A DNA stretch of 32,000 nt from an uncultured Chloroflexia bacterium (GCA_963718915.1 CAVRAI010000015.1:690001-722000); one strand, 5' to 3'; counted from the first letter of the stretch, positions 4,186 to 30,879 are shown. Program-made: numbers and translations. The notes: generated from the letters alone by a model not told the origin.

Positions 4186-4407
4186 GCAAGATACCTCCTG
4201 GGACGGTGGGGAAATCGTGATATTGGCGCGCGTTAGGGTATTTTCGAGCGCGCGGTATATATCTGTAGCATAGCATGCGAAAGACGCCGGGAGATGTGCG
4301 GGCCGCTTTGGGATGCCAACAGCAGGGCGCCGTCACGCCAAAGCGGGCAGTATGTAGCTGGTTCAGATGGGAGCTGGTGTGGTATGCTGGCGGACAGACG
4401 CCAGCCT

Positions 4408-5333: not shown

Positions 5334-6359
5334 ATGCCCGGTCTCCCCATTGGTATTCCCGCTGTGCCCGAGGCTATCACTAAGCGCATCTGGGATTTCG
5401 TTGTCCAGGGTATCGCAGATGCTTTCAAGTATCACGACAAAAAGGATATAGCGCGCCGCATCGAGGCTCTTCGCACGAGCCCCAACTTGCCGAGTCTCAT
5501 GACGGATGCTGTTCAGGAGGGGTGGCAGTACTGGCTCACCCACAGCCACGAGCATGCTATTATTGCCGCAGTGAAGCGCGATCTGCAGGATCACCTGCCA
5601 ACTCTTGTTGGTGTTAAACTCCTCGAAGCGCTGCAACGTCCCATTACTCGCCACGATGTGGAGGAGTATCTCGCGACCTGGTTCACAGAATTGCATAGCG
5701 GCGCCACGCTTGGAAAGTGTCGTGACGCCGCTCGCGATCTGCTTGATCGCATCTTACAGGCGACGCTGAGCGCGCCAGCTCTGCAGGATCTTGCTCAAGC
5801 TGTCCTCATGTGGGATGAAGCTCATCGGCGACCTCAACCAACACTTGGGCCTCGAATTGCCAAAGTGCGCGAGTGTGCTCGCGACCGCGCTCGCGCCGAC
5901 GGATATGCATTTGTGTCTTCAGCGCATCTCATGTATGGGCTTGCGAGCATTCAACCGCTCAGTTCCCCTCAGCAGATTCTTGGCACAAGGGGTATGGGGA
6001 TGAGTCCAGAGCAAATCCTCACAGCGATAGGGACTCTTCCACTCAGTGGTCGGCAAGAAGGTGGGCAGCTAAATAGCCCCGTGGAACCTGCGGAATCAGC
6101 GGGCATCAGAACGTTGCTTGGCGAAGCCCAGGCGCGTGCCGCTGAAGAGCATGCGCAGACTGTCGACGATGGCCATCTGCTGCGTGGCATCCTGGTGATT
6201 GTGGCTGACCGCTACTGCACCTGTAGCGGTAGCCTTCGTCTGCTGTTTAATCAGATGAACGTCGATCCGGTCTACTGGGCCAATAAACTCACCCAGGTGT
6301 ATGCCTGGCCCACGATCAACAACAGCATTGGGATGCGGTTGTCGGAATACGGCATCTAG
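5334..6359 (+). CDS. hypothetical protein with C-terminal Clp_N-like (Clp R) double repeat
   Basis: 341-codon ORF with ATG preceded by GAGAAAGG. The C-terminal half has two repeats resembling the Clp N-domain: AKVRECARDRARADGYAFVSSAHLMYGLASIQ...MSPEQILTAI and IRTLLGEAQARAAEEHAQTVDDGHLLRGILVIV...LFNQMNVDPVYWANKL. The N-terminal half is unrecognised. Confidence 0.6.
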   Translation: MPGLPIGIPAVPEAITKRIWDFVVQGIADAFKYHDKKDIARRIEALRTSPNLPSLMTDAVQEGWQYWLTHSHEHAIIAAVKRDLQDHLPTLVGVKLLEALQRPITRHDVEEYLATWFTELHSGATLGKCRDAARDLLDRILQATLSAPALQDLAQAVLMWDEAHRRPQPTLGPRIAKVRECARDRARADGYAFVSSAHLMYGLASIQPLSSPQQILGTRGMGMSPEQILTAIGTLPLSGRQEGGQLNSPVEPAESAGIRTLLGEAQARAAEEHAQTVDDGHLLRGILVIVADRYCTCSGSLRLLFNQMNVDPVYWANKLTQVYAWPTINNSIGMRLSEYGI

Positions 6360-6433
6360 CAAGGCATCAGCGAGCCACGTAGACAACCAGCAAGATACGC
6401 GCTCAATGATGAGAGCTGTAGGAGGAGGCGCTT

Positions 6434-8521
6434 ATGACCAACCAGGCTGGCAACGCGGGCACTCAGCCTCACCGCGCCGCGCAAGCCGATATTCCCGAAA
6501 TCGCCATCGGCACGCGCATCACTAACTTTAGCAATTTTGATATCACCGTGTCGGGGCTGGCTTCGGGCGGGATGGGGCTGGTCGTCTGGGGGCCCAACCG
6601 CGGAGGTGGTGGCAATGTGGAGGCCGTCAAACTGCCGCGCCCCGACCGGTTGGCGGCCGCCGATCCCCAACATCGGGCTGCTATCCTGGAGGACTTCGAG
6701 CGCGAGGCGCTCACCTGGTGTCATCTCTGGCGCCATCCCTGTATCGTCACTGCCGATAGCTTGCTGCTGTTGCGCGGACTGGGGGATCTGCCTGCGATCT
6801 TTCTCGAGTATGCGCCCAAAGGTTCGTTGCGTGATTTGCTTCATAAGGTGCATCGTCCAGGCAGCACACAGGCTTCGGGATTAGAGGGAGTCTTCGCCTG
6901 GGGGCAGATGATCGCCGAGGCGCTCGCCGTTATCCATCGGCCCGAGCCTGATCTCGATCGTCCGGAGCCACTGGTGCATTGCGACCTCAAACCCGAGAAC
7001 GTGCTGCTCGATGAGTGGGGCTGGGCGATGCTGACCGACCTGGGGCTGACCCGTGCCCTCGCCTCTCTCGCCGACACCGCGCCCCAGCCATCCGCTGGTA
7101 CCTTACCTGCGTCCGATGGCAGCGGTGGCGCAATGGAATTGAGCGAGTTGAGCGCGGAGCAGCAGGCGCAGGTGGCGCAGATGCGGCGCTTATTGGCCCA
7201 GGCAGGTATCACCGACATCACCCCACCCGCCACACCGACGGCGTCGCCATCTGATGGAGCGCTCTACAGCACGCGTACCATCTGTGTCTCGCCTGCCCTG
7301 CAAGCGGCTCTTACTGCTGCCCTGGCCGCTGCAGGGGACGGTTCGGCACAGTCCGCGCAACGTTCGCTGCCCGCGCTCCCTGCTCTTTCGCCCAGCGCGA
7401 CGGCGGTGATTGCGCGGATGGGCAGCCGTGGGCAGGTGGCGGGCACGCCACCCTATATGCCCCCCGAACAGTGGCTGGGACTGGATGCGGTCGAACCGGC
7501 GAGTGATGTCTATGCGTTGGGGGTGCTGCTCTTCGAGTTGTTCGCCGGGGTGGGGGGACGCGCGAGCTATCCGCACACCCCTGATCCCGTCTTGACACTA
7601 ACGGCCGGGCCGTTCGCCGCGTGGTGCGCCGCGCATGCGGGTGGACCGAGTCGCCGTCTCGCCGATGTAGAGGTGCGCGCGCTGAGCGATGGGCCGCTGG
7701 TGAAGTTAGTCCAGGAGGGGCAGCAGCCACTGGCGGAGGAGGTGCTCGCGGGGTTGGATGCCTTGATTGGCGACTGTCTGGCGGTCTCACCACAGGCGCG
7801 TCCGACGGCGCAGCGGGTGCGGGAGCGGTTAGCGACGCTGGCCGAGCAGGCGCGAGTGAAACCGCTGTCTATTCCAGTGTATCCACGTACCGACGAGAGT
7901 AAGGCAATCTTCTGGGGCAACCTGGGCATCACCTATGGTGAGATGGGACAGCATGAGGAGCAGTTGCGTCTGCTGCGGAAGTCGATTACGCTCACGCCTG
8001 ACAATCCCCAACGGCTTGAGACGTTGGGGATTGCGCTCAACGAGTTAGGACGAGCCGAACGACAATCAGCGCAACAAGCGAGAATAGCGGGCGAATATGC
8101 CCGAGCACAGGCGTTCGAGGCGCAGGCGCGTGCTCATCTGGAGGAGGGTGTGCGCATCTTCCAGGAGGCAGAAGGGCTACTAACCCCTGAGCAACTTGAA
8201 CGTTATTCACATCTGGCGAATTCGACTGCCTACAACCTGGGTGTAGTACTCTGCGATCTGGAACGCTATGCCGAGGCGGTGGCGGCGACCGAACGGGCGC
8301 TAGTTGCTGATCCCAACGATGCCATGTCCTTTCGCCACCTGGCACTCGTCTACTTGCGTTGGGCCGAGGAGGCGGAGACTCCTGCTGCTTTACAGGTGGA
8401 GAGGTTAGAGAAGGCAGAGGCGCAAATGCGGCAAACGCTCGCGATCGCTCCGCACTTCGTTAGCGGGCAGACGTTGCTGGATTCCATCCAGCGCGAGTTG
8501 GCCGCCGCACGCCGCGCATGA
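6434..8521 (+). CDS. Ser/Thr protein kinase (non-RD, HCD/DLG) with activation-segment insertion and C-terminal TPR domain; paralog 1
   Basis: ATG 6 nt after AGGAGGAGG. Kinase motifs: SGGMGLVVWG (Gly loop), AVKLPRP (Lys), DFEREALTW (Glu), HCDLKPENVLL (catalytic loop), LTDLGLTRAL (DFG equivalent), GTPPYMPPEQW (APE equivalent), DVYALGVLLFEL, ARPTA. The TPR-like tail is AIFWGNLGITYGEMGQHEEQLRLLRKSITLTPDNPQ.. plus further repeats. Confidence 0.85.
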   Translation: MTNQAGNAGTQPHRAAQADIPEIAIGTRITNFSNFDITVSGLASGGMGLVVWGPNRGGGGNVEAVKLPRPDRLAAADPQHRAAILEDFEREALTWCHLWRHPCIVTADSLLLLRGLGDLPAIFLEYAPKGSLRDLLHKVHRPGSTQASGLEGVFAWGQMIAEALAVIHRPEPDLDRPEPLVHCDLKPENVLLDEWGWAMLTDLGLTRALASLADTAPQPSAGTLPASDGSGGAMELSELSAEQQAQVAQMRRLLAQAGITDITPPATPTASPSDGALYSTRTICVSPALQAALTAALAAAGDGSAQSAQRSLPALPALSPSATAVIARMGSRGQVAGTPPYMPPEQWLGLDAVEPASDVYALGVLLFELFAGVGGRASYPHTPDPVLTLTAGPFAAWCAAHAGGPSRRLADVEVRALSDGPLVKLVQEGQQPLAEEVLAGLDALIGDCLAVSPQARPTAQRVRERLATLAEQARVKPLSIPVYPRTDESKAIFWGNLGITYGEMGQHEEQLRLLRKSITLTPDNPQRLETLGIALNELGRAERQSAQQARIAGEYARAQAFEAQARAHLEEGVRIFQEAEGLLTPEQLERYSHLANSTAYNLGVVLCDLERYAEAVAATERALVADPNDAMSFRHLALVYLRWAEEAETPAALQVERLEKAEAQMRQTLAIAPHFVSGQTLLDSIQRELAAARRA

Positions 8522-8556
8522 GTGCGCGCAAGAGTGCGGCTTGGTATCTGATTGTT

Positions 8557-8585
8557 TTGAGTTGAGTTGAGTTGAGTTGAGTTGA
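8557..8585. repeat. pentanucleotide tandem repeat (GTTGA), 5 full copies plus a partial
   Basis: ttga-gttga-gttga-gttga-gttga-gttga read directly at 8557-8585. It lies between the stop of kinase paralog 1 (8521) and the ATG at 8606. Confidence 0.9.
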
Positions 8586-8823
8586 CTTGTGCCTGGAGGT
8601 TCAGCATGGACTGGTTTCGCCGTCGTAATGATGAGCCAGAACAATCGCGTCCGGCTCTCGCGTTCAATCTCGCACCGACTCCACCTGCTCCCGTGGATCC
8701 CCCGATCCTTCGGCAGCATCGAAGCAGGGGAAAACCAACGCCACTCCCCCTACTTCAGCTGAGGTCAGCAAGGCCCTCGATGCGTTCATTGAAGCGCCCG
8801 ACTGGGAACTGACCCGCCAGGTA

Positions 8824-9738
8824 TTGGAGCAGCAGCAGGATGTGCTCCTCACGCTCGATGCCTGTCTGGCCCTTATTCGGCGCGTTGGCCACTCATCCAG
8901 CGCCCATAATCGCAGCATACTCAGCACCTGCGCCCGACTTCTGCTCATTGCCTATGATCGCGATATCCCAACCGCCTGGGAGTGGCTGGAGGATCGACGG
9001 CAAGCACGCGCCGCGCTCAACGCTGCCATGAAGGAGTTAGCTGATCTGCCCCCCGAACAGGCTGCCGGTCAGTTCCAGCGCACCTTCGATCAACTCTCGC
9101 CCGCTCAACAGCAACATGCCAACGACATCCTTGCCGAGGCGGCCAACGAAGCGCGTGAAGCGGAAGGCGGCAACGGCAACGGCGATGTACAGCAAAGGAA
9201 TGTGCCAGGACAAGCATCGCAGGATGCCTCCACGTTGGAGGCAGCGGTCAAAGAGATGCTCAGCGCGCGTGATGAAGCCGCGCTTCGTACGGTCATCGAA
9301 CGCCACCAGCAGGAGTTGCTCACCGGGGAAGCCGCGAGCATCCTGCGCTACAATGCCACACACGCGCGGCAAGATACGACACAAGAGCACGGCGAGGAGA
9401 TTGCGCGTCACCTGGAGCAACTCGCCGATCTGCTGGATCGCATACAGGCCGACCGTGAGGCAAAGCACCCCTCAATCCAACGATCTGCGCCCATGCCGAC
9501 GGCCCAGCCGACGCCCATGCATCCCGTGACGCCAGCGAGTTCCTTGGTTGTGCCACCGCCCACCGACCAGCAGCGCCAGTTGGCAGCAATGCTCCTCGCT
9601 CAGACGGACGGTCAACTCGACGAGGCGCTCCGGCGGGGATTGCTCGCCTGGATGGGAAATTCCGGGGTGACGGCGACCCCGGCAGAAATTACTGCTGCGT
9701 ATACCGTCTTCCTTGCAGCCACCGCATCAAGCAACTAG
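8824..9738 (+). CDS. hypothetical alpha-helical protein with an internal repeated motif; the true 5' end is probably upstream (ATG 8606 plus a frameshift near 8699-8703)
   Basis: The open frame runs 8635-9738, and the only in-frame start is TTG 8824. A motif FIEAPDWELTRQVLEQQQDVLLT (8785-8853) straddles that TTG and recurs as MLSARDEAALRTVIERHQQELLT (9256-9324), so coding very likely starts further upstream. ATG 8606 has a GGAGG 6 nt upstream but is in a different frame. Confidence 0.6.
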   Translation: MEQQQDVLLTLDACLALIRRVGHSSSAHNRSILSTCARLLLIAYDRDIPTAWEWLEDRRQARAALNAAMKELADLPPEQAAGQFQRTFDQLSPAQQQHANDILAEAANEAREAEGGNGNGDVQQRNVPGQASQDASTLEAAVKEMLSARDEAALRTVIERHQQELLTGEAASILRYNATHARQDTTQEHGEEIARHLEQLADLLDRIQADREAKHPSIQRSAPMPTAQPTPMHPVTPASSLVVPPPTDQQRQLAAMLLAQTDGQLDEALRRGLLAWMGNSGVTATPAEITAAYTVFLAATASSN

Positions 9739-9758
9739 CAACTAGCAACTAGCAACTA
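9731..9758. repeat. heptanucleotide tandem repeat (GCAACTA) x4 overlapping the stop codon of the preceding ORF
   Basis: gcaacta x4 read directly at 9731-9758. The first TAG (9736-9738) is the stop codon of the 8824-9738 ORF. Confidence 0.9.
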
Positions 9759-9769
9759 GCTATCTCAGG

Positions 9770-9802
9770 CCGAGCGTAGTATGTGGTTGATACTACGCTC
9801 GG
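9770..9802 (+). terminator. perfect 13 bp stem-loop (possible terminator or regulatory hairpin, no U-tract)
   Basis: CCGAGCGTAGTAT (9770-9782), loop GTGGTTG, ATACTACGCTCGG (9790-9802). It lies between the stop at 9738 and the RBS/ATG of the FHA gene at 9826. No T-run follows, so the intrinsic-terminator call is weak. Confidence 0.45.
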
Positions 9803-9825
9803 CTGGTAGAGAAAAGGAGTATCTC

Positions 9826-10482
9826 ATGGCTTTCCGCTCAGACAAGGCACGGCGTTCTTCCAGGAATCCAGCGGCACGCCAGAATGATGACCCATTAACT
9901 CCTCCTGATGATCCTACTGAGTTGCTGCCGGTAGTCAAGCAAGAAGCGCCTCCTCGCTCAAGGCGCAAGACAAAGAAGCGCTCACCGTCCTCAGAGGCAG
10001 CGGGAGAGCCAGTTCCAGAACCTCAAGAGGCGCCAGATCATACGGAACGCGGGGCGCCGTCTATTGAATTACTGAACGGCCCAGATGACGGCACACTTCT
10101 TACACTCACCACGCCATACACGATCATTGGGCGCGAGCCAGCCGCACGAGCGTTGTCTCTGCCGTTGAGCGGTAGCGGTAATGGTGATGCCTCCGGCGCC
10201 GAGGGAGGGGAGATGGGGCAGCGTCAGCATGTTGCGCTGGTCGCTATTCCATCAGACCCAAGACTTTCGCGCACTCACCTGTTGTTGCTGCAACAGGGCG
10301 ATGAATGGTTTATTCGCGATCTCGGTAGCTCCAACGGCACGTTTTTCTCTGCTACTGGTCAGCGAATCTCTGCGGAGACAAATCACCCACTTGCGCCGGG
10401 AGATGTCGTACGGGCTGGGGATACCTATCTGCGCCTGACGTACGCGCCTGCTGAATCACACCCTTCCAGCGAAAATTCCTGA
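9826..10482 (+). CDS. FHA domain-containing protein (phosphothreonine-binding) with a basic, disordered N-terminus
   Basis: ATG 9826 is 7 nt after AAGGAG; the ATG at 9781 offered by the ORF track lies inside the hairpin. The FHA signature is YTIIGRE...RLSRTHLLLLQQGDEWFIRDLGSSNGTFFSATGQRI....LAPGDVVRAGDTYLRL. Confidence 0.8.
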   Translation: MAFRSDKARRSSRNPAARQNDDPLTPPDDPTELLPVVKQEAPPRSRRKTKKRSPSSEAAGEPVPEPQEAPDHTERGAPSIELLNGPDDGTLLTLTTPYTIIGREPAARALSLPLSGSGNGDASGAEGGEMGQRQHVALVAIPSDPRLSRTHLLLLQQGDEWFIRDLGSSNGTFFSATGQRISAETNHPLAPGDVVRAGDTYLRLTYAPAESHPSSENS

Positions 10483-10600
10483 TACTCCTGTCAGATCTTT
10501 GCCGATCGAAGGAACAGCGTTGCCGTGAGATATCTCGTCGCGTAGCGCCGTCTATCGGATCATGCTATCGCGCATCACACGAAGAAAGTGAAAGCGACCT

Positions 10601-12685
10601 ATGACGGATGCTGGTTCACGCGCTACGCAAGCCGGAATACCTGAGATCACGATTGGCACGCGCATCACCAATTACGGAGTTCAGGATATCAGCGTATCCG
10701 GCATGGCTTCGGGAGGGATGGGGCTGGTCGTCTGGGGACCCAACCGTGGTCGTGGGGGCAGAATACAGGCGGTCAAACTGCCCAGACCCGACCGGTTAGC
10801 CAACGCTGATGCACACCATCAGGCTGCGATCCTGGCGGACTTCGAGCGTGAAGCGCTCACCTGGTGTCACCTCTGGCCCCATCCCTGTGTTGTCGCCGCT
10901 GAAAGTCTGCTACGGTTGCCAGGACTGGGGGATCTGCCTGCCATCTTTCTCCAGTATGCGCCCAAAGGCTCGTTGCGCGACCGGCTGAACATCGTCCATC
11001 ATGTGGGCAGTAACCAGGCGCTGGGGCTGCAAGCGGTCTTCGCCTGGGGGCAGATGATTGCGGGGGCGCTGGCCGCCATCCACCAGCCCGACCCAGCGTT
11101 TGAACGTCCAGATCCGCTGGTGCACTGCGACCTCAAACCGGAGAACGTGCTGCTCGATGAGCAGGGCTGGGCGCTGCTGACCGATCTGGGGCTCACCCGC
11201 GCGCTCGCCTCGCTCGCCGATACCACACCGCTCTCCCCCGTCGTGACAGGTGCGCGTGGAGTGATGGACGATGGAGGGAGTCACGCGAGCAGCCTGGGCG
11301 CGTTGAGCGCGGAACAACAGGCGCAGGTGGCGCAGATGCGGCGCTTGTTGGCACAGGCAGGAGGCGGCTTGCCCCCGAACGTCACGGTACCCGCTACACC
11401 CGCACTGCCCGATGGCGTGCTCTATGGCACGCGCACCATCTGTGTCTCGCCCGCGCAGCAAGCGGCACTTGCCAATGAGCTGGCTTCCACGCCAGGCTCG
11501 CCTGCCCAAGTCAGTGCGCCCCAGTTGCCCGCCCTGTCGCCCAGCGCGACGGCGGTGATTGCTCAGATGGGCAGCCGTGGGCATGTGGCGGGCACTCCAC
11601 CATACATGGCGCCCGAACAATGGCTCGGCCTGGATGCGGTGGAACCGGCGAGCGATGTCTATGCGCTGGGGGTGCTGCTCTTCGAGCTGTTTGCTGGGGT
11701 GGGTGGACGTGCGGGCTATCCCCACACACCGAACCCGTTGCTGCTGCTGAAGATGGAACCGTTCGCCGCGTGGTGCGCCGCGCATGCGAGTGGGCCGAGT
11801 CGGCGTCTCTCCGATCCCGAAGTGGCGGCGCTGAGTGATGGGCCACTAGTGAAGCTGTGGCAAGATGGCCAGCAAGCGCTGGCGGAGGAGGTGCTCGCGG
11901 GGTTGGATGCCTTGATTGGCGACTGTCTGGCATTCGCGCCCGCTGCGCGTCCGACGGCGCGGCGGGTGCGGGAGCGGTTAGCGGCGCTGGCCGAGCAGGC
12001 GGGGCTGGATCCGTTGCGCATCGTTGAAAATCCCCGCACTCCCGAGAGCGAAGCGATCTTCTGGGGCAATCTGGGCATCACTTATGGTGAGATGGGGCAA
12101 TACGAAGAGCAGTTGCGTCTGCTGCGGAAGTCGATCACGCTCACACCTGACAATCCTCAACGGCTGGAGACGCTGGGCAATGCTCTAGGCAAGGTGGCTC
12201 AGGTCGAGCAGCACGCGGCAGAGGAGGCTGTTAAGCAGCGAGACCACGCTGGCGCGCAACGTCTCGAAGTGCAGGCACGCGCTCACCGTGAGGAATCAGT
12301 GCGCATCTACCAGGAGGCGGAGGCGCTGCTGACTCCAGAACAGTTGGCGCGCTACCCACATCTGGCTAACTCTATCCCCTATAACCTGGGCGCGACGCTC
12401 GGTGATCTGGGGCGTTACGCCGAGGCGGTAGCGGCTCGTCAGCGCGCGCTGGCCTCTGATCCTAACGATGCCATGTCCTATCGCGGTCTGGCAATCATTT
12501 ACTTCCGTCGGGCTGAGGAGGCGGGAATCTCGCTCGCGGCACGTGTTGAACATCTCGAGCAGGCGGAGGCAAATATGCGGCAAGTGCTCGTAATAGCTCC
12601 CAACTACGTTAATGGGCAGGCGTTGCTGGCTACCATCCAGCGCGAGCTGGCTGCCGCGCGCCATGATGTGAAGCCAACCGAATGA
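10601..12685 (+). CDS. Ser/Thr protein kinase (non-RD) with TPR domain; paralog 2
   Basis: Same architecture and motifs as paralog 1: ASGGMGLVVWG, AVKLPRP, HCDLKPENVLL, LTDLGLTRAL, GTPPYMAPEQW, and TPR tail AIFWGNLGITYGEMGQYEEQLRLL... It ends ..AAARHDVKPTE*. Confidence 0.85.
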   Translation: MTDAGSRATQAGIPEITIGTRITNYGVQDISVSGMASGGMGLVVWGPNRGRGGRIQAVKLPRPDRLANADAHHQAAILADFEREALTWCHLWPHPCVVAAESLLRLPGLGDLPAIFLQYAPKGSLRDRLNIVHHVGSNQALGLQAVFAWGQMIAGALAAIHQPDPAFERPDPLVHCDLKPENVLLDEQGWALLTDLGLTRALASLADTTPLSPVVTGARGVMDDGGSHASSLGALSAEQQAQVAQMRRLLAQAGGGLPPNVTVPATPALPDGVLYGTRTICVSPAQQAALANELASTPGSPAQVSAPQLPALSPSATAVIAQMGSRGHVAGTPPYMAPEQWLGLDAVEPASDVYALGVLLFELFAGVGGRAGYPHTPNPLLLLKMEPFAAWCAAHASGPSRRLSDPEVAALSDGPLVKLWQDGQQALAEEVLAGLDALIGDCLAFAPAARPTARRVRERLAALAEQAGLDPLRIVENPRTPESEAIFWGNLGITYGEMGQYEEQLRLLRKSITLTPDNPQRLETLGNALGKVAQVEQHAAEEAVKQRDHAGAQRLEVQARAHREESVRIYQEAEALLTPEQLARYPHLANSIPYNLGATLGDLGRYAEAVAARQRALASDPNDAMSYRGLAIIYFRRAEEAGISLAARVEHLEQAEANMRQVLVIAPNYVNGQALLATIQRELAAARHDVKPTE

Positions 12686-12736
12686 TGCTGGGAGATGCTG
12701 GAAGAATGCTGAAGAGTAGTGAAGGGAACCTGGACG

Positions 12737-14767
12737 ATGACGGATGCTGGTTCACATAGCGCGCATGTCGGGATACCTGAGATCAAGATAGGCACGCGCA
12801 TTACCAACTTTGGGAGTCACGACATCACGGTGAGCGGGCTGGCCTCGGGCGGGATGGGACTGGTCGCCTGGGGACCCAACCGGGCCCAGGGCGGTCAGAT
12901 GGCGGCGGTCAAGTTGCCGCGCCCCGATCGGTTGGCTACCGCCTCCCGTGAGCAACGCGCTGCTATCCTGGCCGAGTTCGAACAGGAAGCGCTGACCTGG
13001 TGTCATCTCTGGTACCACCCTTGCATCGTCACTGCGGATAGCTTGTTACGGCTCCACGCACTGGGTGGAGTGCCTGCCATTTTCCTCGATTATGCGCCCA
13101 ATGGCTCCTTGCGTGATCTGCTTCATACGGTGCATCGTCCAGGCAGCACAGAGGCTTCGGGATTAGAGGGAGTCTTCGCTTGGGGACAGATGATCGCCGC
13201 CGCCCTCGCCACCATCCACCAGCCCGCTCGTGATCTTGAACGGCCAGATCCGCTGGTCCATTGCGATCTCAAACCGGAGAACGTCCTGCTCAGCGCACAG
13301 GGTTGGGCGATGCTGACCGATTTGGGGCTGACCCGCGCGCTGGCCTCCCTCGCCGAGACCGCGCCGCTCCCGTCTGCCACGGTACTCGCGAGCGGAACAG
13401 CAAGCGACTTGAGCGCGGAGCAGCAGGCGCAGGTGGCGCAGATGCGGCGCTTATTGGCCCAGGCGGGAGTCGCCTTGCCCCCGAACGCGACGGCGCCCGC
13501 TCTTGCCGAGGGAGCGGTCTATGACACCCGCACCATCTATGTCTCGCCCGCGCAGCAAGCCGCTCTCGCACAGGTCGCGTCGCACGTTGCGTCGGATTTG
13601 TCCAATGCGCCCGCTTTCTTGCCCAGCGCGACGGCGGTGATTGCCCAAATGGGCAGTCGCGGACATGTAGCGGGCACCCCGCCCTATATGCCCCCGGAGC
13701 AGTGGTTAGGGCTGGATGCGGTCGAACCGGCGAGTGATGTCTATGCCCTGGGAGTGCTGCTCTTCGAGCTGTTTGCGGGGGTAGGCGGACGCGCGAGCTA
13801 CCCGCACACACCCAATTCTGGGCTGCTGCTGGCGGCTGGGCCGTTCGCCGCGTGGTGCGCCGCGCATGCGAGTGGGCCGAGTCGGCGTCTCTCCGATCCC
13901 GAAGTGGCGGCGCTGAGTGATGGGCCACTAGTGAAGCTGTGGCAAGATGGCCAGCAAGCGCTGGCGGAGGAGGTGCTCGCGGGGTTGGATGCCTTGATTG
14001 GCGACTGTCTGGCATTCGCGCCCGCTGCGCGTCCGACGGCGCAGCGGGTGCGGGAGCGGTTAGCGACGCTTGCCGAGCAGGCGGGCGTGGATTCGCTCTC
14101 TATCCCAGATTTCCCCCGCACTCCTGACGCTGAGGCCACCTTCTGGGGCAACCTGGGCATCGTCTATGGTGAGATGGGGCAGTATGAGGAGAAACTGCGC
14201 CTGCTGCGCAAGTCGGTAGCGCTTACTCCTGATGATCTCCTACGGCGCGAGACGCTGGGCAACGCGCTCAACGAGTTGGGTCGGACTGAGAAGGAATCGG
14301 CGCAAAAAGCGAGAGCCGCGGGAGACCATGGCACAGCGCAGGCGCTTGGAGCGCAGGCGCGCGCGCACCTGGAGGAAGCAGTGCGCACCTTCCAGGAGGC
14401 GGAGGTGGACCTGACTCCCGAACAGTTGGCGCGCTACCCACATTTGGACAACACGATTCCCTATAACCTGGGCGCCGCGCTCTCGGATCTGGGGCGTTAC
14501 GCCGAGGCGGTAGCGGCTCGCCAGCGCGCGCTGGCCACTAATCCCAATGATGCCATGTCCTATCGCGGTCTGGCGCTCGTCTACCTGCGTTGGGTTGAGG
14601 AGGCGGACACCACGCCTGTGGCACGTGTTGAACGGTTGGAGCAGGCGGAGGCGCATGCGCGCCATGTGCTCAAAATTGCCCCGCATTTTGGCGGCGCTCT
14701 GGATCTGCTGGCTACCATCCAGCGCGAGTTGGTTGCCGCGCGCCGAGATGTGAGGCCGACCGAATGA
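12737..14767 (+). CDS. Ser/Thr protein kinase (non-RD) with TPR domain; paralog 3
   Basis: Start set at ATG 12737 (MTDAGSH..) by analogy with paralog 2. The ORF is open from GTG 12719. It carries the same kinase and TPR motifs and ends ..AARRDVRPTE*. Confidence 0.85.
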   Translation: MTDAGSHSAHVGIPEIKIGTRITNFGSHDITVSGLASGGMGLVAWGPNRAQGGQMAAVKLPRPDRLATASREQRAAILAEFEQEALTWCHLWYHPCIVTADSLLRLHALGGVPAIFLDYAPNGSLRDLLHTVHRPGSTEASGLEGVFAWGQMIAAALATIHQPARDLERPDPLVHCDLKPENVLLSAQGWAMLTDLGLTRALASLAETAPLPSATVLASGTASDLSAEQQAQVAQMRRLLAQAGVALPPNATAPALAEGAVYDTRTIYVSPAQQAALAQVASHVASDLSNAPAFLPSATAVIAQMGSRGHVAGTPPYMPPEQWLGLDAVEPASDVYALGVLLFELFAGVGGRASYPHTPNSGLLLAAGPFAAWCAAHASGPSRRLSDPEVAALSDGPLVKLWQDGQQALAEEVLAGLDALIGDCLAFAPAARPTAQRVRERLATLAEQAGVDSLSIPDFPRTPDAEATFWGNLGIVYGEMGQYEEKLRLLRKSVALTPDDLLRRETLGNALNELGRTEKESAQKARAAGDHGTAQALGAQARAHLEEAVRTFQEAEVDLTPEQLARYPHLDNTIPYNLGAALSDLGRYAEAVAARQRALATNPNDAMSYRGLALVYLRWVEEADTTPVARVERLEQAEAHARHVLKIAPHFGGALDLLATIQRELVAARRDVRPTE

Positions 14768-14818
14768 TGCTGGGAGATGCTGGAAGAATGCTGAAGAGTA
14801 GTGAAGGGAACCTGGACG

Positions 14819-15037
14819 ATGACGGATGCTGGTTCACATAGCGCGCATGTCGGGATACCTGAGATCAAAATAGGCACGCGCAACACCAACTTTGGGAGTC
14901 ACGACATTATCGTGAGCGGGATGGTCGGCGAGATGGGTCTGGTCGCCTGGGGACCGAATCGAGCCCAATGCGGCGAAATGCAAGCGGTCATGTTCCTCGT
15001 CCAGATCGTCTGGCCGACTTCGAGCAGGAAGCGCTGA
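14819..15037 (+). pseudogene. truncated, decayed N-terminal remnant of a kinase-TPR paralog
   Basis: MTDAGSHSAHVGIPEIKIGTR.. is near-identical to the paralog 3 N-terminus. The Gly loop is then damaged (GMVGEMGLV). An internal deletion and frameshift remove KLPRPDRL..AAIL. A remnant of LADFEQEALT is visible at about 15019-15049, after which homology ends. Confidence 0.8.
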
Positions 15038-15159
15038 CCTACCTATTATCCGATTATCCGAGGAACACCCGCTCACAGAAGAACACGCGTAAACGCGAGG
15101 CGCCAGCGCGCATACTGGCTCGATTGGTAATGATATAGTGCAGAAGGGAAGTAGCCTTT

Positions 15160-15792
15160 GTGAGTGATTCCGCGTCTGGCTGGCTAGGCCCTGATGAGAA
15201 CCGCACAATAGACGAGATGATCGCTCAGCCTGACTCACCCGGTTGGGCAGACTGCGATCTGTGGATTGAAATGATAGTTGCCGCACTTCTGTCTGACTTG
15301 CAGGAGTCAGACCGAGACGTTATCGCGAACAACGTGAAGCACAAGGTACGTACCGGCCTTCCGGGCTTCCGGCGCCACAGCAAACTAACGACATGGATCT
15401 TCGGCATCCTGAATCACGAGAAGATTGATTTCTACCGGCGAGGTAAGCCCCGGCGAAATGAGGCCTCACTTGAGGCGCTCGAGGAGGAATATGGGCATCT
15501 TGAGTTCATCACTATTGACCACGTCAGTCAACACGAATTCTACCGTGATCTGGCGCGCCGTGTTCTGGAAGCGGCACGCAAGTTTGCCCTGACACGAAAG
15601 GATCCCAAACGAGCGGTTGACATTATTCAGCTTTGGCTCGAGGGGGCCAAGCCAGCGGAAATCGCCGACCTGTTAGGCATTAGGCCGCAAATCGTCTCGA
15701 ATACGCTGTATCTCCTGCGAGGGTATTTGCAGCATTTCGCAGCTGAATGGTTCGGGGAGACTAATTCCCCAGATCCTCCAGACATCGACTGA
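15160..15792 (+). CDS. sigma-70 family RNA polymerase sigma factor (ECF-like)
   Basis: GTG start preceded by GAAGGGA. The region-2-like block is SKLTTWIFGILNHEKIDFYRR and the region-4 HTH-like block is AEIADLLGIRPQIVSNTLYLLRGYL. Confidence 0.7.
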   Translation: MSDSASGWLGPDENRTIDEMIAQPDSPGWADCDLWIEMIVAALLSDLQESDRDVIANNVKHKVRTGLPGFRRHSKLTTWIFGILNHEKIDFYRRGKPRRNEASLEALEEEYGHLEFITIDHVSQHEFYRDLARRVLEAARKFALTRKDPKRAVDIIQLWLEGAKPAEIADLLGIRPQIVSNTLYLLRGYLQHFAAEWFGETNSPDPPDID

Positions 15793-15866
15793 GGAACGAT
15801 ATCCCGTGAGAGCGACTCTGCTCAACGTCTCGATACGTCCGGCATTTCAAGTGATGGAGGCTATCT

Positions 15867-16919
15867 GTGATCCCTACATTCCCGACGCATACCACTGACG
15901 CGGGAAACGAGCACATTCTAGAGTTTCTCGTTGATCTTGTCGTAGGCACATCTGATCGGCCTGATATAGATATAGAGCGTCTCAGCGCTCATCTCGTCGC
16001 ATGCGAACAGTGTCGTGCTGGTCTTGCGCTTCTGCTGAAAGCTCAGGCGGAACGAAGCGATCTCTCGGATACCGACCGAAGCGGCTTTGGCGCGATGTTA
16101 GATAGCATTGCGCGGCTTGTCCATACCACCCCTGTCGCCAATACCGAAGCGCTTGCCGCATTCGCCGAGGAAATGATGATATCGGCGAATGAAGAGTCGG
16201 CACACCAGCGTTTTCCTGTCTTCGCCGCACATCTGGATCGTTGCCAGGAGTGTCGCGAGGAGCTTGCGGGATTCGTGAACCTGCTTGGGCAAGCGCAGGC
16301 GCTAGGCTTCTTTGAAGCGACCCCGATCGCCACAGCTCAAAGTAGCGCTCCCGCTCAGGAACAAGCCGTGACCGATCCACTCTGGCTACCGAGCGGGCAA
16401 GGCATTCTCCGGCTGAGGGAAGAGCTGACTATTCTCGTTGGCAAGCTGACCGTTGCGGTGGTGAGCGCTATACCAGGTATTCGTACCTTCGAGTCTCCGG
16501 TCGAGCCAGCCCTGTTGTCTCGCGAACTGGCGGTTGGTCGTGAAGAACGCCTGATATTTACAATTCGCGCGGCGTCTGATGGGATGCTCAAAACAGCGAA
16601 CTGGCTGCGTGTCAGCCTGGATCTCAGCGCCCGGTATGATCGCCGTTTGAAAGTGACGCTGCATGCAGAATCGGTGACGGCTCTGCAAGATATCCTCCCC
16701 GATCCTGAGCAGTCAGGTGTGCCAGAATCCGGGCTCGCCTGGCGGGTTGAGTTGATCGATGGCGCCACACGCCGCCTCGCCGGACGCGGCGCGACCGATA
16801 CCGCTGGAATCGCTTCGTTTCCGTTGCCAGACCCCGGTCATTATGAGCTGACCATTGCCAGAGGCGCGCAGTCCTGGGAAATTCCGCTGGAGATGCGCTA
16901 CCAGCCTGTGACAGACTAG
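15867..16919 (+). CDS. putative anti-sigma factor with two zf-HC2 (HxxxCxxC) motifs and a C-terminal beta-sandwich-like domain
   Basis: HLVACEQC at 15990-16013 and HLDRCQEC at 16230-16253 both fit the ZAS HxxxCxxC motif. The gene sits immediately downstream of the sigma gene. The C-terminus TDTAGIASFPLPDPGHYELTIARG resembles carboxypeptidase-regulatory/Ig-like folds. The start (GTG 15867) is uncertain. Confidence 0.6.
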   Translation: MIPTFPTHTTDAGNEHILEFLVDLVVGTSDRPDIDIERLSAHLVACEQCRAGLALLLKAQAERSDLSDTDRSGFGAMLDSIARLVHTTPVANTEALAAFAEEMMISANEESAHQRFPVFAAHLDRCQECREELAGFVNLLGQAQALGFFEATPIATAQSSAPAQEQAVTDPLWLPSGQGILRLREELTILVGKLTVAVVSAIPGIRTFESPVEPALLSRELAVGREERLIFTIRAASDGMLKTANWLRVSLDLSARYDRRLKVTLHAESVTALQDILPDPEQSGVPESGLAWRVELIDGATRRLAGRGATDTAGIASFPLPDPGHYELTIARGAQSWEIPLEMRYQPVTD

Positions 16920-16958
16920 TGGCAGACTAGCCCAGTTCAATGAAGGAGTGTTTCCTAC

Positions 16959-26656: not shown

Positions 26657-28732
26657 ATGAGCGACTCTGGTTCGCACGCCGCACAGACCGGGATTCCTGA
26701 GATCACCATTGGCACACGCATCACCAATTACGGAGGTGTCGACATTATCGTGTCGGGGATGGCCTCAGGCGGGATGGGGCTGGTCGCCTGGGGGCCCAAC
26801 CACGCTCGTGGTGGTCAGATGGAGGCGGTCAAACTGCCCAAACCCGACCGATTGGCCGCCGCCTCCCGTGCGCAACGCGCCGCGATTCTGGCGGACTTCG
26901 AGCGCGAGGCGCTGACCTGGTGTCACCTCTGGTATCACCCTTGCATCGTCGCTTCCGAAGGTCTGTTACGATTGAACGCGCTGGGGGATCTGCTTGCCAT
27001 CTTTCTTCAGTATGCGCCTGAAGGCTCGCTGCGCGACCGACTGAACATCGTCCATCATCCAGATAGCACGCAGGTGCTGGGGCTGCAAGCGGTCTTTGCC
27101 TGGGGGCAGATGATCGCCGCTGCGCTGGCCGCCATCCACCAGCCCACTCCTGATCTCGAACGGCCCGAACCACTGGTACACTGTGATCTCAAACCCGAGA
27201 ACGTGCTGCTGAGCGCGAAGGGATGGGCGATGCTCACTGACCTGGGCCTCACCCGCGCGCTCGCCTCCCTCGCCGACCCCGATCCCCAGGCGTCCCCCGT
27301 TGCCACATCCCCGTCTGCTGGCGGCAGCAACGCAAGCAGGATGAGTGGGATGAGTGAGATGGATGGCGCCCATGGGTTGAGCGTAGAACAGCAGGCGCAG
27401 GTGGCGCAGATGCGGCGCTTATTGGCCCAGGCAGGAGTCGCCCTGCCCCCGAACGTGACGGCGCCCGCGGCCCCCACACTGCCGGATGGAGCACTCTACG
27501 GCACGCGCACCATCTGTGTCTCGCCTGCCCAGCAAGCGGCTCTTGCGGCTTCGTTGACATCCCGTGCGGCGATGGATCAGCCCAACGCACCCGCGCTTTC
27601 CCCCAGCGCGACGGCGATGATGGCCCAGATGGGCAGCCGTGGGCCGGTTTCGGGCACCCTGCCTTACATGCCCCCGGAGCAGTGGCTCGGCCTGGATGCG
27701 GTGGAACCGGCGAGCGATGTCTATGCGCTAGGGGTACTGCTCTTCGAGCTCTTCGCTGGCGTTGGTGGGCGTGCGGGCTATCCCCACACACCGGACCCGT
27801 TGCTGGTACTGACGGCAGGACCGTTCGCCGCGTGGTGCGCCGCGCATGCGAGTGGGCCAAGTCGGCGTCTCTCCGATGCAGAGGTGCGCGCGCTGAGTGA
27901 TGGGCCTTTGCTCAAGCTGATGCAGGATGGACAGCAGGCGCAGGCGGACGAGGTGCTCGCGGGGCTGGATGCCTTGATTGGCGACTGTCTGGCATTCGCA
28001 CCCACAGCCCGTCCGACGGCGCAGCGGGTGCGGGACCGGTTAGCGGCGCTGGCCGAGCAGGCAGGCCTGGAGCCACTGACCATCTCCGAACCCACCCGTA
28101 CGGCTGAGAGTGAAGCGATCTTCTGGGGCAATCTGGGTGTCACCTATGGTGAGATGGGCCAGTATGAGGAAAAACTGCGCTTGCTGCGTAAGGCGGTGGA
28201 TCTCATGCCTGACAATCCCCAACGGCGTGAGACGCTGGGCAACGCATTCAACGAGTTGGCCTGGACTGAGCAGAAGGCAGCGCGGGCAGCAGACGCACAG
28301 GGAGACCATGCCAGGACTCAGGCGCTCGATGCGCAGTCGCATGCTCACCTGGAGGAGGCGGTGCGTACCTTCCAGGGTGCGGAGGCGCTGTTGACTCCTG
28401 AGCAATTGGCGCGCTACCCGCATCTCGCGAATTCGATCTCATTCAACCTGGGTGGCGCGTTCGGCGATCTGAGGCGTTACGCCGAGGCGATAGTGGCGAC
28501 TGAACGGGCGCTGGCTGCCGATCCCAACGATGCCATGTCCTATCGTCAGTTGGCGCTGATCTACCTCCGCTGGTCGCGCGTGGACGGAACTCCCGCTACC
28601 ACACAGGTTGAGCGGTTAGAACAGTCCGAGGCGAACATGCGCCATGTGCTCGAAATTGCCCCTTATTATGGTAGTGGGCAGGAGTTGCTTGAGACCATCC
28701 AGCGCGAACTGGCCGAGGCACGCCGTCGATAA
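26657..28732 (+). CDS. Ser/Thr protein kinase (non-RD) with TPR domain; paralog 6
   Basis: Start set at ATG 26657 (MSDSGSHAAQTGIPEITIG..), preceded by AAAGGGGAG. The upstream part of the 26474 ORF overlaps the pseudogene tail and is not homologous to any paralog N-terminus. It has the full kinase and TPR motif set. Confidence 0.85.
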   Translation: MSDSGSHAAQTGIPEITIGTRITNYGGVDIIVSGMASGGMGLVAWGPNHARGGQMEAVKLPKPDRLAAASRAQRAAILADFEREALTWCHLWYHPCIVASEGLLRLNALGDLLAIFLQYAPEGSLRDRLNIVHHPDSTQVLGLQAVFAWGQMIAAALAAIHQPTPDLERPEPLVHCDLKPENVLLSAKGWAMLTDLGLTRALASLADPDPQASPVATSPSAGGSNASRMSGMSEMDGAHGLSVEQQAQVAQMRRLLAQAGVALPPNVTAPAAPTLPDGALYGTRTICVSPAQQAALAASLTSRAAMDQPNAPALSPSATAMMAQMGSRGPVSGTLPYMPPEQWLGLDAVEPASDVYALGVLLFELFAGVGGRAGYPHTPDPLLVLTAGPFAAWCAAHASGPSRRLSDAEVRALSDGPLLKLMQDGQQAQADEVLAGLDALIGDCLAFAPTARPTAQRVRDRLAALAEQAGLEPLTISEPTRTAESEAIFWGNLGVTYGEMGQYEEKLRLLRKAVDLMPDNPQRRETLGNAFNELAWTEQKAARAADAQGDHARTQALDAQSHAHLEEAVRTFQGAEALLTPEQLARYPHLANSISFNLGGAFGDLRRYAEAIVATERALAADPNDAMSYRQLALIYLRWSRVDGTPATTQVERLEQSEANMRHVLEIAPYYGSGQELLETIQRELAEARRR

Positions 28733-28763
28733 GCGCGATTTCGAACGCGAGACAGACGACAGA

Positions 28764-28798
28764 CGAGAGACGAGAGACGAGAGACGAGAGACGAGAGA
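28764..28798. repeat. heptanucleotide tandem repeat (CGAGAGA) x5 in the leader of kinase paralog 7
   Basis: Five perfect copies read directly at 28764-28798, with degenerate copies from about 28748. The equivalent leaders of paralogs 5 and 6 carry only single degenerate GA-rich versions. Confidence 0.9.
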
Positions 28799-28820
28799 GG
28801 ATAAAGAGGAGCCTACCACT

Positions 28821-30879
28821 ATGAGCGACTCTGGTTCGCACGCCGCACACAGCGAGTTACCCGAGATCACCATTGGCACGCGCATCACCAACTTTGGCGC
28901 TTACGATATTACGGTGTAGTGGGATGGCCTCGGGCGGGATGGGGCTGGTCGCCTGGGGGCCCAACCGCGCTCGTGGGGGCCAGATGCTAGCTGTCAAACT
29001 GCCTAAACCCGATCGGTTGGCCGCCGCCGACCCGAAGAAGCGCGCCGCGATCCTGGCGGACTTTGAGCAAGAGGCGCTGACCTGGTGTCACCTCTGGGCG
29101 CATCCCTGTATCATCTCCGCTGATAGCTTGCTGCGGTTGCGCGCGCTGGGGGATCTGCCTGCTATCTTTCTCGAGTATGCGTCCGAAGGCTCGTTGCGCG
29201 ACCGACTGAACATCGTCCATCATCCAGATAGCACGCAGGTACTGGGACTGGAAGCGGTCTTCACCTGGGGGCAGATGATCGCCGTGGCGCTGGCCGCCAT
29301 TCACCAGCCCGCTCCTGATCTTGAACGGCCTGAACCGCTGGTACATTGCGACCTCAAACCGGAGAATGTGCTAGTCGATGCCCAGGGCTGGGCGATGCTG
29401 ACCGATCTGGGCCTCACCCGCGCGCTCGCCTCTCTCGCTTCTTTCGACGAGACCGCGTCCCAGGCGCCCACCGTTGCCTCACCCGCGCTCGATAGTAGCA
29501 ATGGCGCGAATGGAATAACTGGGATGACTGGCGCGGGCGCATTAACTGCGGAACAGCAGGCGCAGGTGGCGCAGATGCGGCGCTTATTGGCCCAGGCGGG
29601 AGTCGCCCTGCCCCCGAACGCGACGGCGCCCGCAGCCCCCACACTGCCCGATGGAGCACTCTACGGCACGCGCACCATCTGTGTCTCGCCCGCGCAGCAA
29701 GCGGCTCTTGTGCACGTCTCGTCTGCGCTCCCCGCCTTGCCGCCCACTGCAACCGCAGTGATTGCCCGGATGGGCAGCCGTGGGCAGGTGGCGGGCACGC
29801 CACAGTACATGCCCCCCGAACAGTGGCTCGGGTTGGAGGCGGTGGAACCGGCGAGCGATGTCTATGCGCTGGGGGTGCTGCTCTTCGAGTTCTTCGCTGG
29901 GGTGGGAGGGCGCTCAGGCTATCCGCACACACCAGACCCGTTGCTCGTTTTGACAGTTGGGCCGTTCGCCGCGTGGTGCGCCGCGCATGCGAGTGGGCCG
30001 AGTCGGCGTCTCTCCGCTCCCGAAGTGGCGGCGCTGAGTGATGGGCCGTTGGTGAAGCTGCGACAAGACGGGCAGCAGGCGCTGGCGGAGGAGGTGCTCG
30101 CGGGGTTGGATGCCTTGATTGGCGACTGTCTGGCATTCGCGCCCACGGCGCGCCCGACGGCGCAGCGGGTGCGGGAGCGGTTAGCGGCGCTGGCCGAGCA
30201 GGCAGGCCTGGAGCCACTGACTATCCCGGTGTATCCACATACCGACGAGAGTAAGGCAATCTTCTGGGGCAACCTGGGCATCACCTATGGTGAGATGGGG
30301 CAGCATGAGGAGCAGTTGCGCCTGCTGCGGAAGTCGATCACGCTCACGCCTGACAATCCCCAACGGCTTGAGACGCTGGGCAATGCTCTGGGCAAGGTGG
30401 CTCAGGTCGAGCAGCACGCGGCAGAGGAGGCTGTTAAGCAAGGAGACCATGCCAGGGCGCAGGCGCTTGCTGCACAGGCACGCTCACGCCTGGAGGAGGC
30501 GGTGGGCGTTTTCCAGGAGGCGGAGGCGCTGCTGACCCCGGAATGGCTGGCGCGCTACTCGCATCTCGCGAAGTCGATCCCATTCAATCTGGGCGCCGCG
30601 CTCGGTGATCTGCAACGCTATGCCGAATCTTTGGATGCCACTCGACGCGGGCTGGAGGTCGATCTGACCGATGCCATGTCGTATCGCCAATTGGGAGTAC
30701 TTTACTGGCGCTGGTCGCGCGTGGACGGAACTCCCGCTGCCACACAGGTTGAGCGGTTGGAACAGTCCGAGGCGCATATTCAGCAGGCGCTTGAGATTGC
30801 CCCCCTCTACGGCGGTGGGCAAGAGTTACTCGCCTTCATCCAGCGTGAATTGGCCACAGCACGGCATAATCTCGAGTAA
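28821..30879 (+). pseudogene. kinase-TPR paralog 7 with a single N-terminal frameshift and in-frame TAG; otherwise intact
   Basis: ATG 28821 (MSDSGSHAAHSELPEITIGTRITNFGAYDITV) runs into TAG 28917-28919. Here gtgtagtgggatgg replaces the gtgtcggggatgg of paralog 6, a 1-nt insertion. The remaining roughly 650 codons are open in frame 1 with all kinase and TPR motifs. A restart at ATG 28924 (MASGGMGLV..) is conceivable. Confidence 0.7.

Follow-up and report, generated by a model that had tools for sequence, protein, structure and literature searches.

A 32,000-nt stretch of genomic DNA from an uncultured Chloroflexia bacterium (GCA_963718915.1 CAVRAI010000015.1:690001-722000; hereafter the window) carries, between positions 5334 and 30879, eight copies of a gene for a Ser/Thr kinase with a C-terminal TPR array. 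As an earlier reading of the sequence alone had described, these copies bracket genes for an FHA protein, Clp_N-like proteins, an extracytoplasmic function (ECF)-like sigma factor and its putative anti-sigma factor, a CHAT protease and a two-ring AAA+ unfoldase. Comparison with related loci identifies this gene set as a real, recurrent system, found so far mainly in Ktedonobacteria and on metagenomic contigs, because kinase genes neighbour it in 12 of 12 loci and because CHAT and Clp are fused in relatives. The reading that we favour, with a little less than an even chance, is a cytoplasmic, phosphorylation-triggered switch in which kinases gate the proteolysis of the anti-sigma factor by CHAT and Clp, releasing the sigma factor in a stress or anti-invader response.

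The protease and the unfoldase are encoded by adjacent genes on the plus strand. The first (16959-19805) specifies a 948-aa protein with a CHAT domain (residues 86-359; 74.3 bits against a Pfam cut-off of 24) followed by a ClpC-type N-domain and a D1 AAA+ module. The CHAT catalytic dyad, His218/222 (HYAGH) and Cys263 (NACW), is invariant in 10 family members and is also found in two CHAT-Clp fusion proteins, P0198 and P0071. The C-terminal 520 residues correspond to the ClpC N-domain and D1 (family profile against residues 5-418 of B. subtilis ClpC, E 2e-38), and this D1 is paralogous to the D1 of the neighbouring Clp protein. Its Walker A (GAHGSGKW, i.e. GxxGxGKW) and Walker B (LRDLP) sequences depart from the canonical AAA+ motifs. 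Within the family, Walker A takes several forms (GVGV, GVGR, GAGS, GVGK-Q), and [DE]DLP stands at Walker B. Given this degeneracy and variability, the D1 module of the CHAT protein is probably unable to hydrolyse ATP. An AlphaFold2 (AF2) model of the protein from a 3-sequence alignment (pLDDT 35.4) was too poor for a fold search.

The second gene (19862-22282) encodes an 806-aa ClpC-like protein with Clp_N (E 2e-8), AAA, AAA_lid_9, AAA_2 and ClpB_D2-small matches, and with canonical Walker motifs in both D1 (GEAGVGKT/FFDELH) and D2 (GPTGVGKT/LLDEVD). Its best PDB match was B. subtilis ClpC (E 3e-135). The sequence RPLGF aligned with KYVGF of B. subtilis ClpC, the ClpP-docking loop, a tripeptide that T. 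thermophilus ClpB lacks; an [LMV]GF loop was kept in 11 of the 12 clade members read. Unlike canonical ClpC, the protein gave no UVR (PF02151) match, and thus no M-domain signal, and only about 90 residues separate the AAA_lid_9 match from the start of D2. It scored below the NCBIfam equivalog cut-offs for ClpB (532 < 1232), ClpA (509 < 993) and ClpV (528 < 885). These scores and motifs place the protein in a distinct ClpC-like clade rather than with the equivalogs, and predict an active unfoldase with a ClpP-docking tripeptide. Its interpretation as a ClpB disaggregase was rejected, in view of the missing UVR match and M-domain and of the LGF at the ClpP-loop position.

Proteins with the CHAT-ClpN-D1 layout were rare. 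A word-indexed protein search gave two full-length relatives, few homologs were present among 5.8 billion proteins, and an exhaustive search of 1.84 billion representatives yielded a handful of proteins of 860-980 aa. A scan of 185,579 species genomes found none with a 3-sequence CHAT alignment and two loci of this architecture with a 10-sequence alignment. A repeat search with the CHAT family profile missed the family members known from the representative library and brought up mainly Clp and CHAT proteins of generic type. Most contigs with related loci are short, and 12 loci have enough flank to judge kinase neighbours; in each of these a kinase gene lay within a few genes of the Clp/CHAT gene. 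The sequence-only reading had been made to depend on such co-occurrence in other genomes, and it was found.

Two arrangements were seen. In the split form, as in the window, CHAT and Clp are separate genes. Loci L003-L008 (CHAT 33% identity) and L040 carry the C-terminus of a kinase-TPR gene, then sigma, anti-sigma, CHAT and Clp. A Ktedonobacterales metagenome-assembled genome (MAG; L009) has three tandem kinase-TPR genes, CHAT and Clp, and a Ktedonobacteria MAG (L011) a Clp_N protein, FHA, kinase-TPR, CHAT and Clp. In the fused form, found by searching with Clp, proteins of 1225-1285 aa join CHAT to a complete two-ring Clp. L036, L041 and L042 encode sigma, a protein with the HxxxCxxC motif of zinc-binding anti-sigma (ZAS) factors, a CHAT-Clp fusion of 1269-1281 aa and a kinase-TPR protein. 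L038 encodes a ZAS-motif protein, a 1225-aa CHAT-Clp and a kinase without a TPR match, and no sigma was called there. The ZAS-motif gene lay 5' and the kinase gene 3' of the fusion in all four fused loci read. In the fusions the Walker motifs are canonical, and both the CHAT dyad and an [MV]GF loop are preserved. Because CHAT and Clp form a single polypeptide in these relatives, the two window proteins would be expected to act together. Their separation, an inferred evolutionary step, seems to have divided the work between an ATPase-dead CHAT-N+D1 protein and an active unfoldase.

The genomes of Ktedonobacteria are large and rich in kinase genes, and such a paralog-rich genome might bring these genes together by chance. 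We consider a chance cluster very improbable; it is contradicted by the comparison, in which no fewer than 12 independent loci carry the same set, with protein identities of 25-58%, and several of them have two of the components fused.

The sigma gene (15160-15792, plus strand) encodes a divergent 210-aa protein that matched many ECF models, all below cut-off (TIGR02937, 27.3 bits against 42.9; Sigma70_r2, E 0.005). A two-sequence profile built from the window protein and that of L003 ranked ECF sigma structures first (E 5e-5), and orthologs are present in L001, L003 and L040. The adjoining gene (15867-16919, plus strand) encodes a putative soluble anti-sigma factor of 350 aa. It carries two ZAS-type HxxxCxxC motifs, H43-C47-C50 and H122-C126-C129, both conserved in L003 and L040; the upstream proteins of L036, L038, L041 and L042 have one or two. 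The secondary structure of a poor single-sequence AF2 model (pLDDT 44.9, too low for a fold search) suggests that the N-terminal half is helical and that the C-terminal domain, which ends in W-x-I-P, is rich in beta structure. The beta-rich tail ends in W-x-[IL/F]-P in 5 of 6 loci read, and an N-terminal HxxxCxxC is common to the upstream proteins. Pfam zf-HC2 matched at E 0.086 and no family was assigned. The ECF-like sigma/anti-sigma pair of the sequence-only reading is supported, for the sigma factor, by the two-sequence profile though not by curated cut-offs, and for its partner by motifs and position. The pattern GGAAC-N6-7-CCGTGAG occurs twice in the window (0.07 expected by chance), upstream of kinase copy K2 (10511-10529) and between the sigma and anti-sigma genes (15793-15810). 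It was rejected as a sigma-dependent promoter, having been defined post hoc from these sites and being absent from L003. A second pattern, GGAAC-N14-19-CGTC, gave no match, and promoter and terminator scans of the window returned nothing exceeding shuffled expectation.

In the switch that we favour, the TPR array of each paralog would recognise a different protein or peptide cue and turn its kinase on. Phosphorylation would then tag the anti-sigma factor, an adaptor or the protease itself, and the mark would be read by the FHA protein and perhaps also by the Clp_N modules. The CHAT protein, through its pseudo-D1, may dock on or co-assemble with the Clp hexamer. CHAT would cut the anti-sigma factor and Clp would unfold the fragments, probably feeding them to a ClpP encoded elsewhere, leaving the released sigma factor to switch on a response regulon. 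The sequence-only reading had assigned the sigma/anti-sigma pair to control of the system. It is more likely to lie downstream of the protease, as its output or substrate, a view drawn from two precedents, the RseA/ClpC1P2 pathway of Mycobacterium tuberculosis and the Craspase/Csx30/RpoE system.

Craspase comprises gRAMP/Cas7-11 and the TPR-CHAT protein Csx29, and cleaves the RpoE-binding Csx30. As in the window, this type III-E system encodes a CHAT protease together with an ECF-type sigma factor and a sigma-binding substrate, and the protease frees or alters the sigma factor. The window differs in having no Cas7-11 and no CRISPR array, in its CHAT being fused to Clp N+D1 instead of TPR, and in kinases rather than target RNA as the predicted trigger; its sigma factor scored 19 bits against NF041236 (cut-off 100). 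No array and no Rfam CRISPR family were found in the window, and no PADLOC cas match among the products scanned. In CalpL-CalpT-CalpS and in type III-B SAVED-CHAT/PCaspase immunity, a signal-activated protease, Lon or CHAT/caspase, acts on an anti-sigma-like protein and frees an ECF sigma factor. Both respond to cyclic oligoadenylates by way of SAVED domains and have no AAA+ unfoldase, kinases or FHA protein. A kinase-to-Clp route is also familiar from the McsB-ClpC phospho-arginine degron system, in which the kinase marks substrates that are read by the ClpC N-domain, and stand-alone Clp_N paralogs (ClpC2, ClpC3) modulate ClpC. McsB is an arginine kinase of another fold, whereas the window kinases are Hanks-type and their phospho-reader is more likely the FHA protein.

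The closest pathway is that of M. tuberculosis, in which PknB-dependent degradation of the ZAS anti-sigma RseA by ClpC1P2 frees SigE (Barik 2010, cited in PMC8999054). It shares with the window a Ser/Thr kinase, a soluble ZAS anti-sigma factor, a ClpC-type unfoldase with a ClpP loop and an ECF sigma factor. It differs in its dispersed housekeeping genes and single essential kinase, and as described it has no CHAT, FHA partner or paralog array; the window has its genes in one cluster, TPR sensors on its kinases and a Clp module joined to a caspase-like protease. ECF54 sigma factors likewise have genetically linked CHAT proteins, or subtilase or carboxypeptidase neighbours, for which proteolytic control has been proposed; they are described without an anti-sigma factor, and neither a fusion to Clp nor an array of kinase-TPR genes is reported for them (PMC8999054). 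A further parallel comes from the NTP-dependent conflict systems of Kaur et al. 2020, in the chaperone or AAA+ 'thresholding' of caspase-like and other effectors, in their TPR, FHA, kinase, HSP70/GrpE and effector-associated domain (EAD) modules, and in their enrichment in multicellular bacteria (PMC7159879). Their cores, as given there, are different (MoxR-vWA, GTPase-GAP1 or EACC1-caspase), and a term search of that text found no Clp-CHAT core with sigma/ZAS, the word 'sigma' occurring 0 times.

An alternative arrangement would have the kinases act directly on the sigma factor, in the manner of ECF43/EcfP-PknT, with CHAT and Clp as a merely co-located protease. ECF sigma factors that lie beside Ser/Thr kinases and are activated by phosphorylation are known (PMC8999054), and the window sigma is very divergent. 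This arrangement is nevertheless quite improbable. A ZAS-motif protein always stands between sigma and CHAT, whereas phospho-activated ECFs typically lack an anti-sigma factor (PMC8999054); region 2.2 of the window sigma retains its acidic residues (ESDRDV); and CHAT-Clp and kinase genes adjoin even where no sigma is visible (L009, L011).

Several observations also weigh against kinase-gated release of the sigma factor. What has been demonstrated is gene co-occurrence, domains and motifs, and the later steps are inferred from these. The anti-sigma factor is identified by motifs and position and stays putative, and no shared promoter motif ties the sigma factor to the genes of the block. Neither a ClpP gene nor a phosphatase gene lies within the window, and one clade member (P0195, in L040) has lost the xGF loop, so that ClpP coupling is not universal. 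No sigma/anti-sigma pair lies beside CHAT/Clp in L009 and L011. No CHAT was seen in L035, L037 or L039, which carry Clp, kinase(-TPR) and FHA genes, and none was called in L043. The sigma output and the CHAT effector are therefore both dispensable modules of a broader Clp, FHA and kinase-TPR core.

The candidate phospho-reader is encoded at 9781-10482 (plus strand) and consists of a phosphothreonine-binding FHA domain (Pfam E 7.8e-12) with a disordered N-terminal tail rich in S, T, P and R; FHA genes also occur in L011, L035, L037, L039 and L043. At the left end of the block (5334-6359, plus strand), a 341-aa stand-alone Clp_N-like protein fell below the Pfam Clp_N cut-off (E 0.008), and its top PDB matches were all ClpC N-domains (E 0.06-0.1). 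It is homologous (E 2e-4) to a 319-aa protein of L011 that clears the Clp_N cut-off, which supports the call transitively, and it matched the Clp_N part of the L038 fusion (E 2e-6). The three Clp_N-like proteins of the sequence-only reading are thus clear for Clp and, by profile, for the middle part of the CHAT protein, and marginal for the 341-aa protein on its own. The other profile-based calls of that reading (Pkinase, TPR, FHA, CHAT and Clp/AAA) also held.

The kinase-TPR copies were delimited by tblastn with K1, motif alignment and Pfam, and all lie on the plus strand. Five are intact: K1 (6434-8521, 695 aa; Pkinase 63 bits, TPR_1/2/8, with the catalytic Lys, HCD, DLG and PPE present), K2 (10601-12685, 694 aa), K3 (12719-14767, likely start ATG 12737), K4 (22375-24435, 686 aa) and K6 (26657-28732, 691 aa). 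K7 (28821-30879) has a single frameshift near its N-terminus, around codon 32-48, and its TPR region is a mosaic of a K1-like followed by a K2-like segment. K5 (24498-26595) is a pseudogene with six frame switches; blastx against K6 gave 7 high-scoring segment pairs in frames 3,1,2,1,2,3,1, and the indels were mapped. The eighth copy, at 14768-14989, is a remnant of another tandem unit, comprising a 51-bp exact copy of the K2/K3 spacer and a 57-codon kinase stub (14819-14989, aa 1-58). The earlier count of eight copies, five of them intact and three ranging from one lesion to a stub, was confirmed; their combined length is about 14.7 kb, not the 16 kb first estimated.

The six frame switches of K5 are all within one gene and none is at a homopolymer, which makes pseudogenisation the better reading. 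Sequencing error is disfavoured but conceivable, given that the organism also has a noisy assembly in ENA. On that 19.5-kb contig the CHAT, Clp, sigma and anti-sigma products appear in fragments (499/309/143 aa etc.), pointing to a noisy assembly of the same locus, and the frameshift calls could include assembly errors.

All six full-length copies scored 59.8-67.3 bits for Pkinase against a Pfam cut-off of 31.7 and matched TPR models. The AVKL, HCDLKPEN, DLG and PPE motifs are invariant across the paralogs, as in Hanks-type kinases, and up to six of the encoded kinases look catalytically competent. An insert of about 110 residues in the activation segment holds an invariant helix, LSAEQQAQVAQMRRLLAQAG (alignment columns ~250-270; K1 aa 236-255), bordered on both sides by hypervariable low-complexity stretches. 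This helix, which the kinases of L009 and L011 do not conserve, may serve in docking or autoinhibition.

The paralogous proteins are 70-73% identical, with pairwise synonymous divergence (dS) of 0.6-1.0 and a dN/dS ratio (omega) of 0.19-0.29. The highest pN/pS values (0.4-0.64) lie in the insert flanks and some TPR helices, and the maximum for a 40-codon window is 0.64. Positive selection on the paralogs is not supported by these values, which instead describe an old family whose copies are born and lost under purifying selection. The immune-receptor-like repertoire of the sequence-only reading is borne out as to the birth and death of copies, but the dS and omega values lend it little support, and for the same reason a diversifying receptor repertoire is not demonstrated. 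The three kinases of L009 are 56-62% identical to one another and about 29% identical to the window copies, and so the expansions are lineage-specific.

Such lineage-specific kinase expansions, pseudogenes included, are also what an abortive-infection defence might show. Here the kinase-TPR proteins would sense phage proteins, CHAT and Clp would destroy many host or phage proteins, and the sigma pair would only control expression of the locus. The genomic setting offers some support. An open reading frame (ORF) directly 3' of K7 (31114-32000, plus strand; the N-terminal 295 aa seen before the window ends) matched PDC-S68, a candidate defence gene in PADLOC (E 6.8e-94, over positions 5-294 of the 1221 in the profile), and gave no Pfam match. 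The block begins right at a tRNA gene with a low-G+C junction, and an 85-89% identical relative differs after the tRNA. EADs are effector-recruiting adaptors in conflict systems (PMC7159879), and in L043 an 81-aa EAD7 protein and a SIR2_2-TPR-EAD7 protein (4659-9296) are encoded directly 5' of the FHA-Clp-kinase-TPR core, tying that core to modules of the systems of Kaur et al. A separate 1094-aa TPR-CHAT protein with a Csx29-like domain order is encoded in L041 (2033-5317), between sigma/ZAS and the fusion, giving that locus two CHAT proteases.

We nonetheless judge abortive infection of this kind fairly unlikely. PADLOC gave no system-level match, and mad6, PD-T4-6, DolB and BovA represent generic domain similarities. 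Purifying selection acts on the paralogs, whose pN/pS exceeds 0.64 in no window, and no mobile-element genes or att site were found in scans of the window. In 7 loci the sigma/ZAS genes are tightly conserved directly 5' of CHAT-Clp, a position more in keeping with a substrate or output than with mere expression control. As to the broader role, the context (the adjacent PDC-S68 candidate and the relative with SIR2-EAD7) suggests defence and leans mildly towards conflict rather than stress or development; a firm defence call is countered also by a host lineage known for complex development.

Another unlikely alternative is that the gene set has nothing to do with invaders and regulates development or proteostasis in a multicellular Ktedonobacterium that sporulates, using controlled proteolysis in a way comparable to HetF or ClpC/MecA. 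CHAT is named after HetF (heterocyst formation), and ClpC/MecA acts in competence. The organism, from soil, belongs to the Ktedonobacterales, and the 90%-identity cluster of the nitronate monooxygenase encoded in the window includes 'Ktedonobacterales bacterium' proteins. The paralogs are of old origin and have been retained, and the proteolysis of anti-sigma factors by Clp is part of the classical biology of stress and development (PMC8999054). Near fused loci, HSP70 genes (L036, L038 and L042; fused to TPR in L036), GrpE (L036, L042) and long TPR proteins (L036, L041 and L042; very long in L036 and L042) suggest a theme of protein quality or assembly. These regions span 8895-15492 in L036, 7746-15154 in L042 and 1-1915 in L038, and the complete system may thus include further chaperones as a second set. 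Against this regulator stand a patchy distribution (two loci among the 185,579 species genomes with the patterns used, few homologs in 5.8 billion proteins), the variation of modules, with sigma, CHAT and SIR2 swapped in and out, and the adjoining defence candidate PDC-S68.

Full-text literature searches found no description of a sigma/ZAS/CHAT-Clp/kinase-TPR module. No system in PADLOC-DB v2 matched; the core genes gave generic kinase, AAA and CHAT similarities (mad6, PD-T4-6, PDC-M37B, DolB, BovA), and the sigma, anti-sigma, FHA, 341-aa and 304-aa proteins no match. The sequence-only reading had likewise not recognised the combination. A kinase, Clp and a protease releasing a sigma factor are already known as a logic; what is new is the coupling of CHAT to Clp, together with a front end of FHA and kinase-TPR proteins and an array of eight copies. 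To our knowledge none of the known AAA+ proteases (ClpXP/AP/CP, Lon, FtsH, HslUV, proteasome) is built like CHAT-Clp, and there is a real chance that it represents a new class. If the kinase-gated switch is correct, a caspase-family protease would be mechanically coupled to a Clp unfoldase, the protease-frees-sigma logic of type III CRISPR would extend to a CRISPR-independent, kinase-driven pathway, and a bacterial array of paralogous sensor kinases would converge on one proteolytic effector, resembling the wiring of eukaryotic innate immunity. A more far-reaching and doubtful extension is that CHAT-Clp, with its caspase-like peptidase carried by a ClpC-type unfoldase or, in this genome, docked to it, is an unrecognised class of ATP-dependent protease serving as both the executioner and the signal-releasing arm of phospho-signalling immunity in multicellular bacteria. 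The tandem kinase-TPR genes would encode a germline receptor repertoire whose members each detect a different protein of an invader, and the effector slot would be exchangeable (CHAT mostly, SIR2-EAD7 in L043). Loci with the fusion can be as compact as four genes (sigma, ZAS protein, CHAT-Clp, kinase-TPR), which opens the switch to direct tests in vitro and in heterologous hosts.

The block had been described as a tRNA-flanked island. ARAGORN and Rfam located a single tRNA in the window, tRNA-Leu (UAA) at 4407-4496 (plus strand, Rfam 58 bits), which marks the left boundary; the block is thus tRNA-adjacent, not flanked. Between the tRNA and the first block gene lies an 837-bp non-coding junction (4497-5333), and the composition profile gave 54-56% G+C at 4-6 kb against 62-65% elsewhere in the window. 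The right end of the block is beyond the window. No integrase domain was found in any window product scanned (Pfam, NCBIfam), and the tRNA 3' end has no second copy within the window that could mark an att repeat. The block is at most a candidate island in the mobile sense: it has tRNA adjacency and the low-G+C junction, but shows no integrase or att repeat. A PHROGs scan returned one generic ATP-dependent-protease match. The single-strand character noted earlier was upheld: all homology-supported genes at 5334-32000 are on the plus strand, and the seven largest minus-strand ORFs gave no Pfam match.

To the left of the tRNA lie a GAF-PAS-cyclase gene (657-2747, at the left end of the window) and the nitronate monooxygenase gene (3157-4185, minus strand), both identified by domain matches. 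Cyclase, monooxygenase and tRNA-Leu (657-4496) are syntenic, at 82-92% nucleotide identity, in the metagenomic relatives L012, L013 and L016. The suggested comparison of this tRNA-Leu site across relatives is answered in part by L016, a contig of only 1.5 kb, which is 85-89% identical through the monooxygenase and tRNA and then carries a different gene, an ordinary ECF sigma; its sequence after the tRNA has no similarity to the 4497-5333 junction. L012 has a methyltransferase-like ORF inserted between monooxygenase and tRNA, and its contig stops 39 nt beyond the tRNA.

Within the block, the plus-strand gene at 8824-9738, delimited by frame analysis, encodes a 304-aa protein with no assigned family (no Pfam, NCBIfam, PADLOC or PHROG match) and no homolog seen in related loci. 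A frame of 68 codons begins with the ATG at 8606 and runs into the start of this gene (8606-8830), and the gene's own frame reads protein-like upstream of its start too. A frameshift upstream is probable, perhaps close to a G4A4 run (judged by eye), with a pseudogene or misassembly as other readings. Microsatellites occupy several intergenic spacers: (TTGAG)x6.6 at 8557-8589, (AGCAACT)x4.4 at 9730-9760 and (AGACGAG)x6.4 at 28754-28798. K5 and K6 are each preceded by shorter GAGAC-rich repeats, and the microsatellite spacers could be slippage-prone joints of tandem units.

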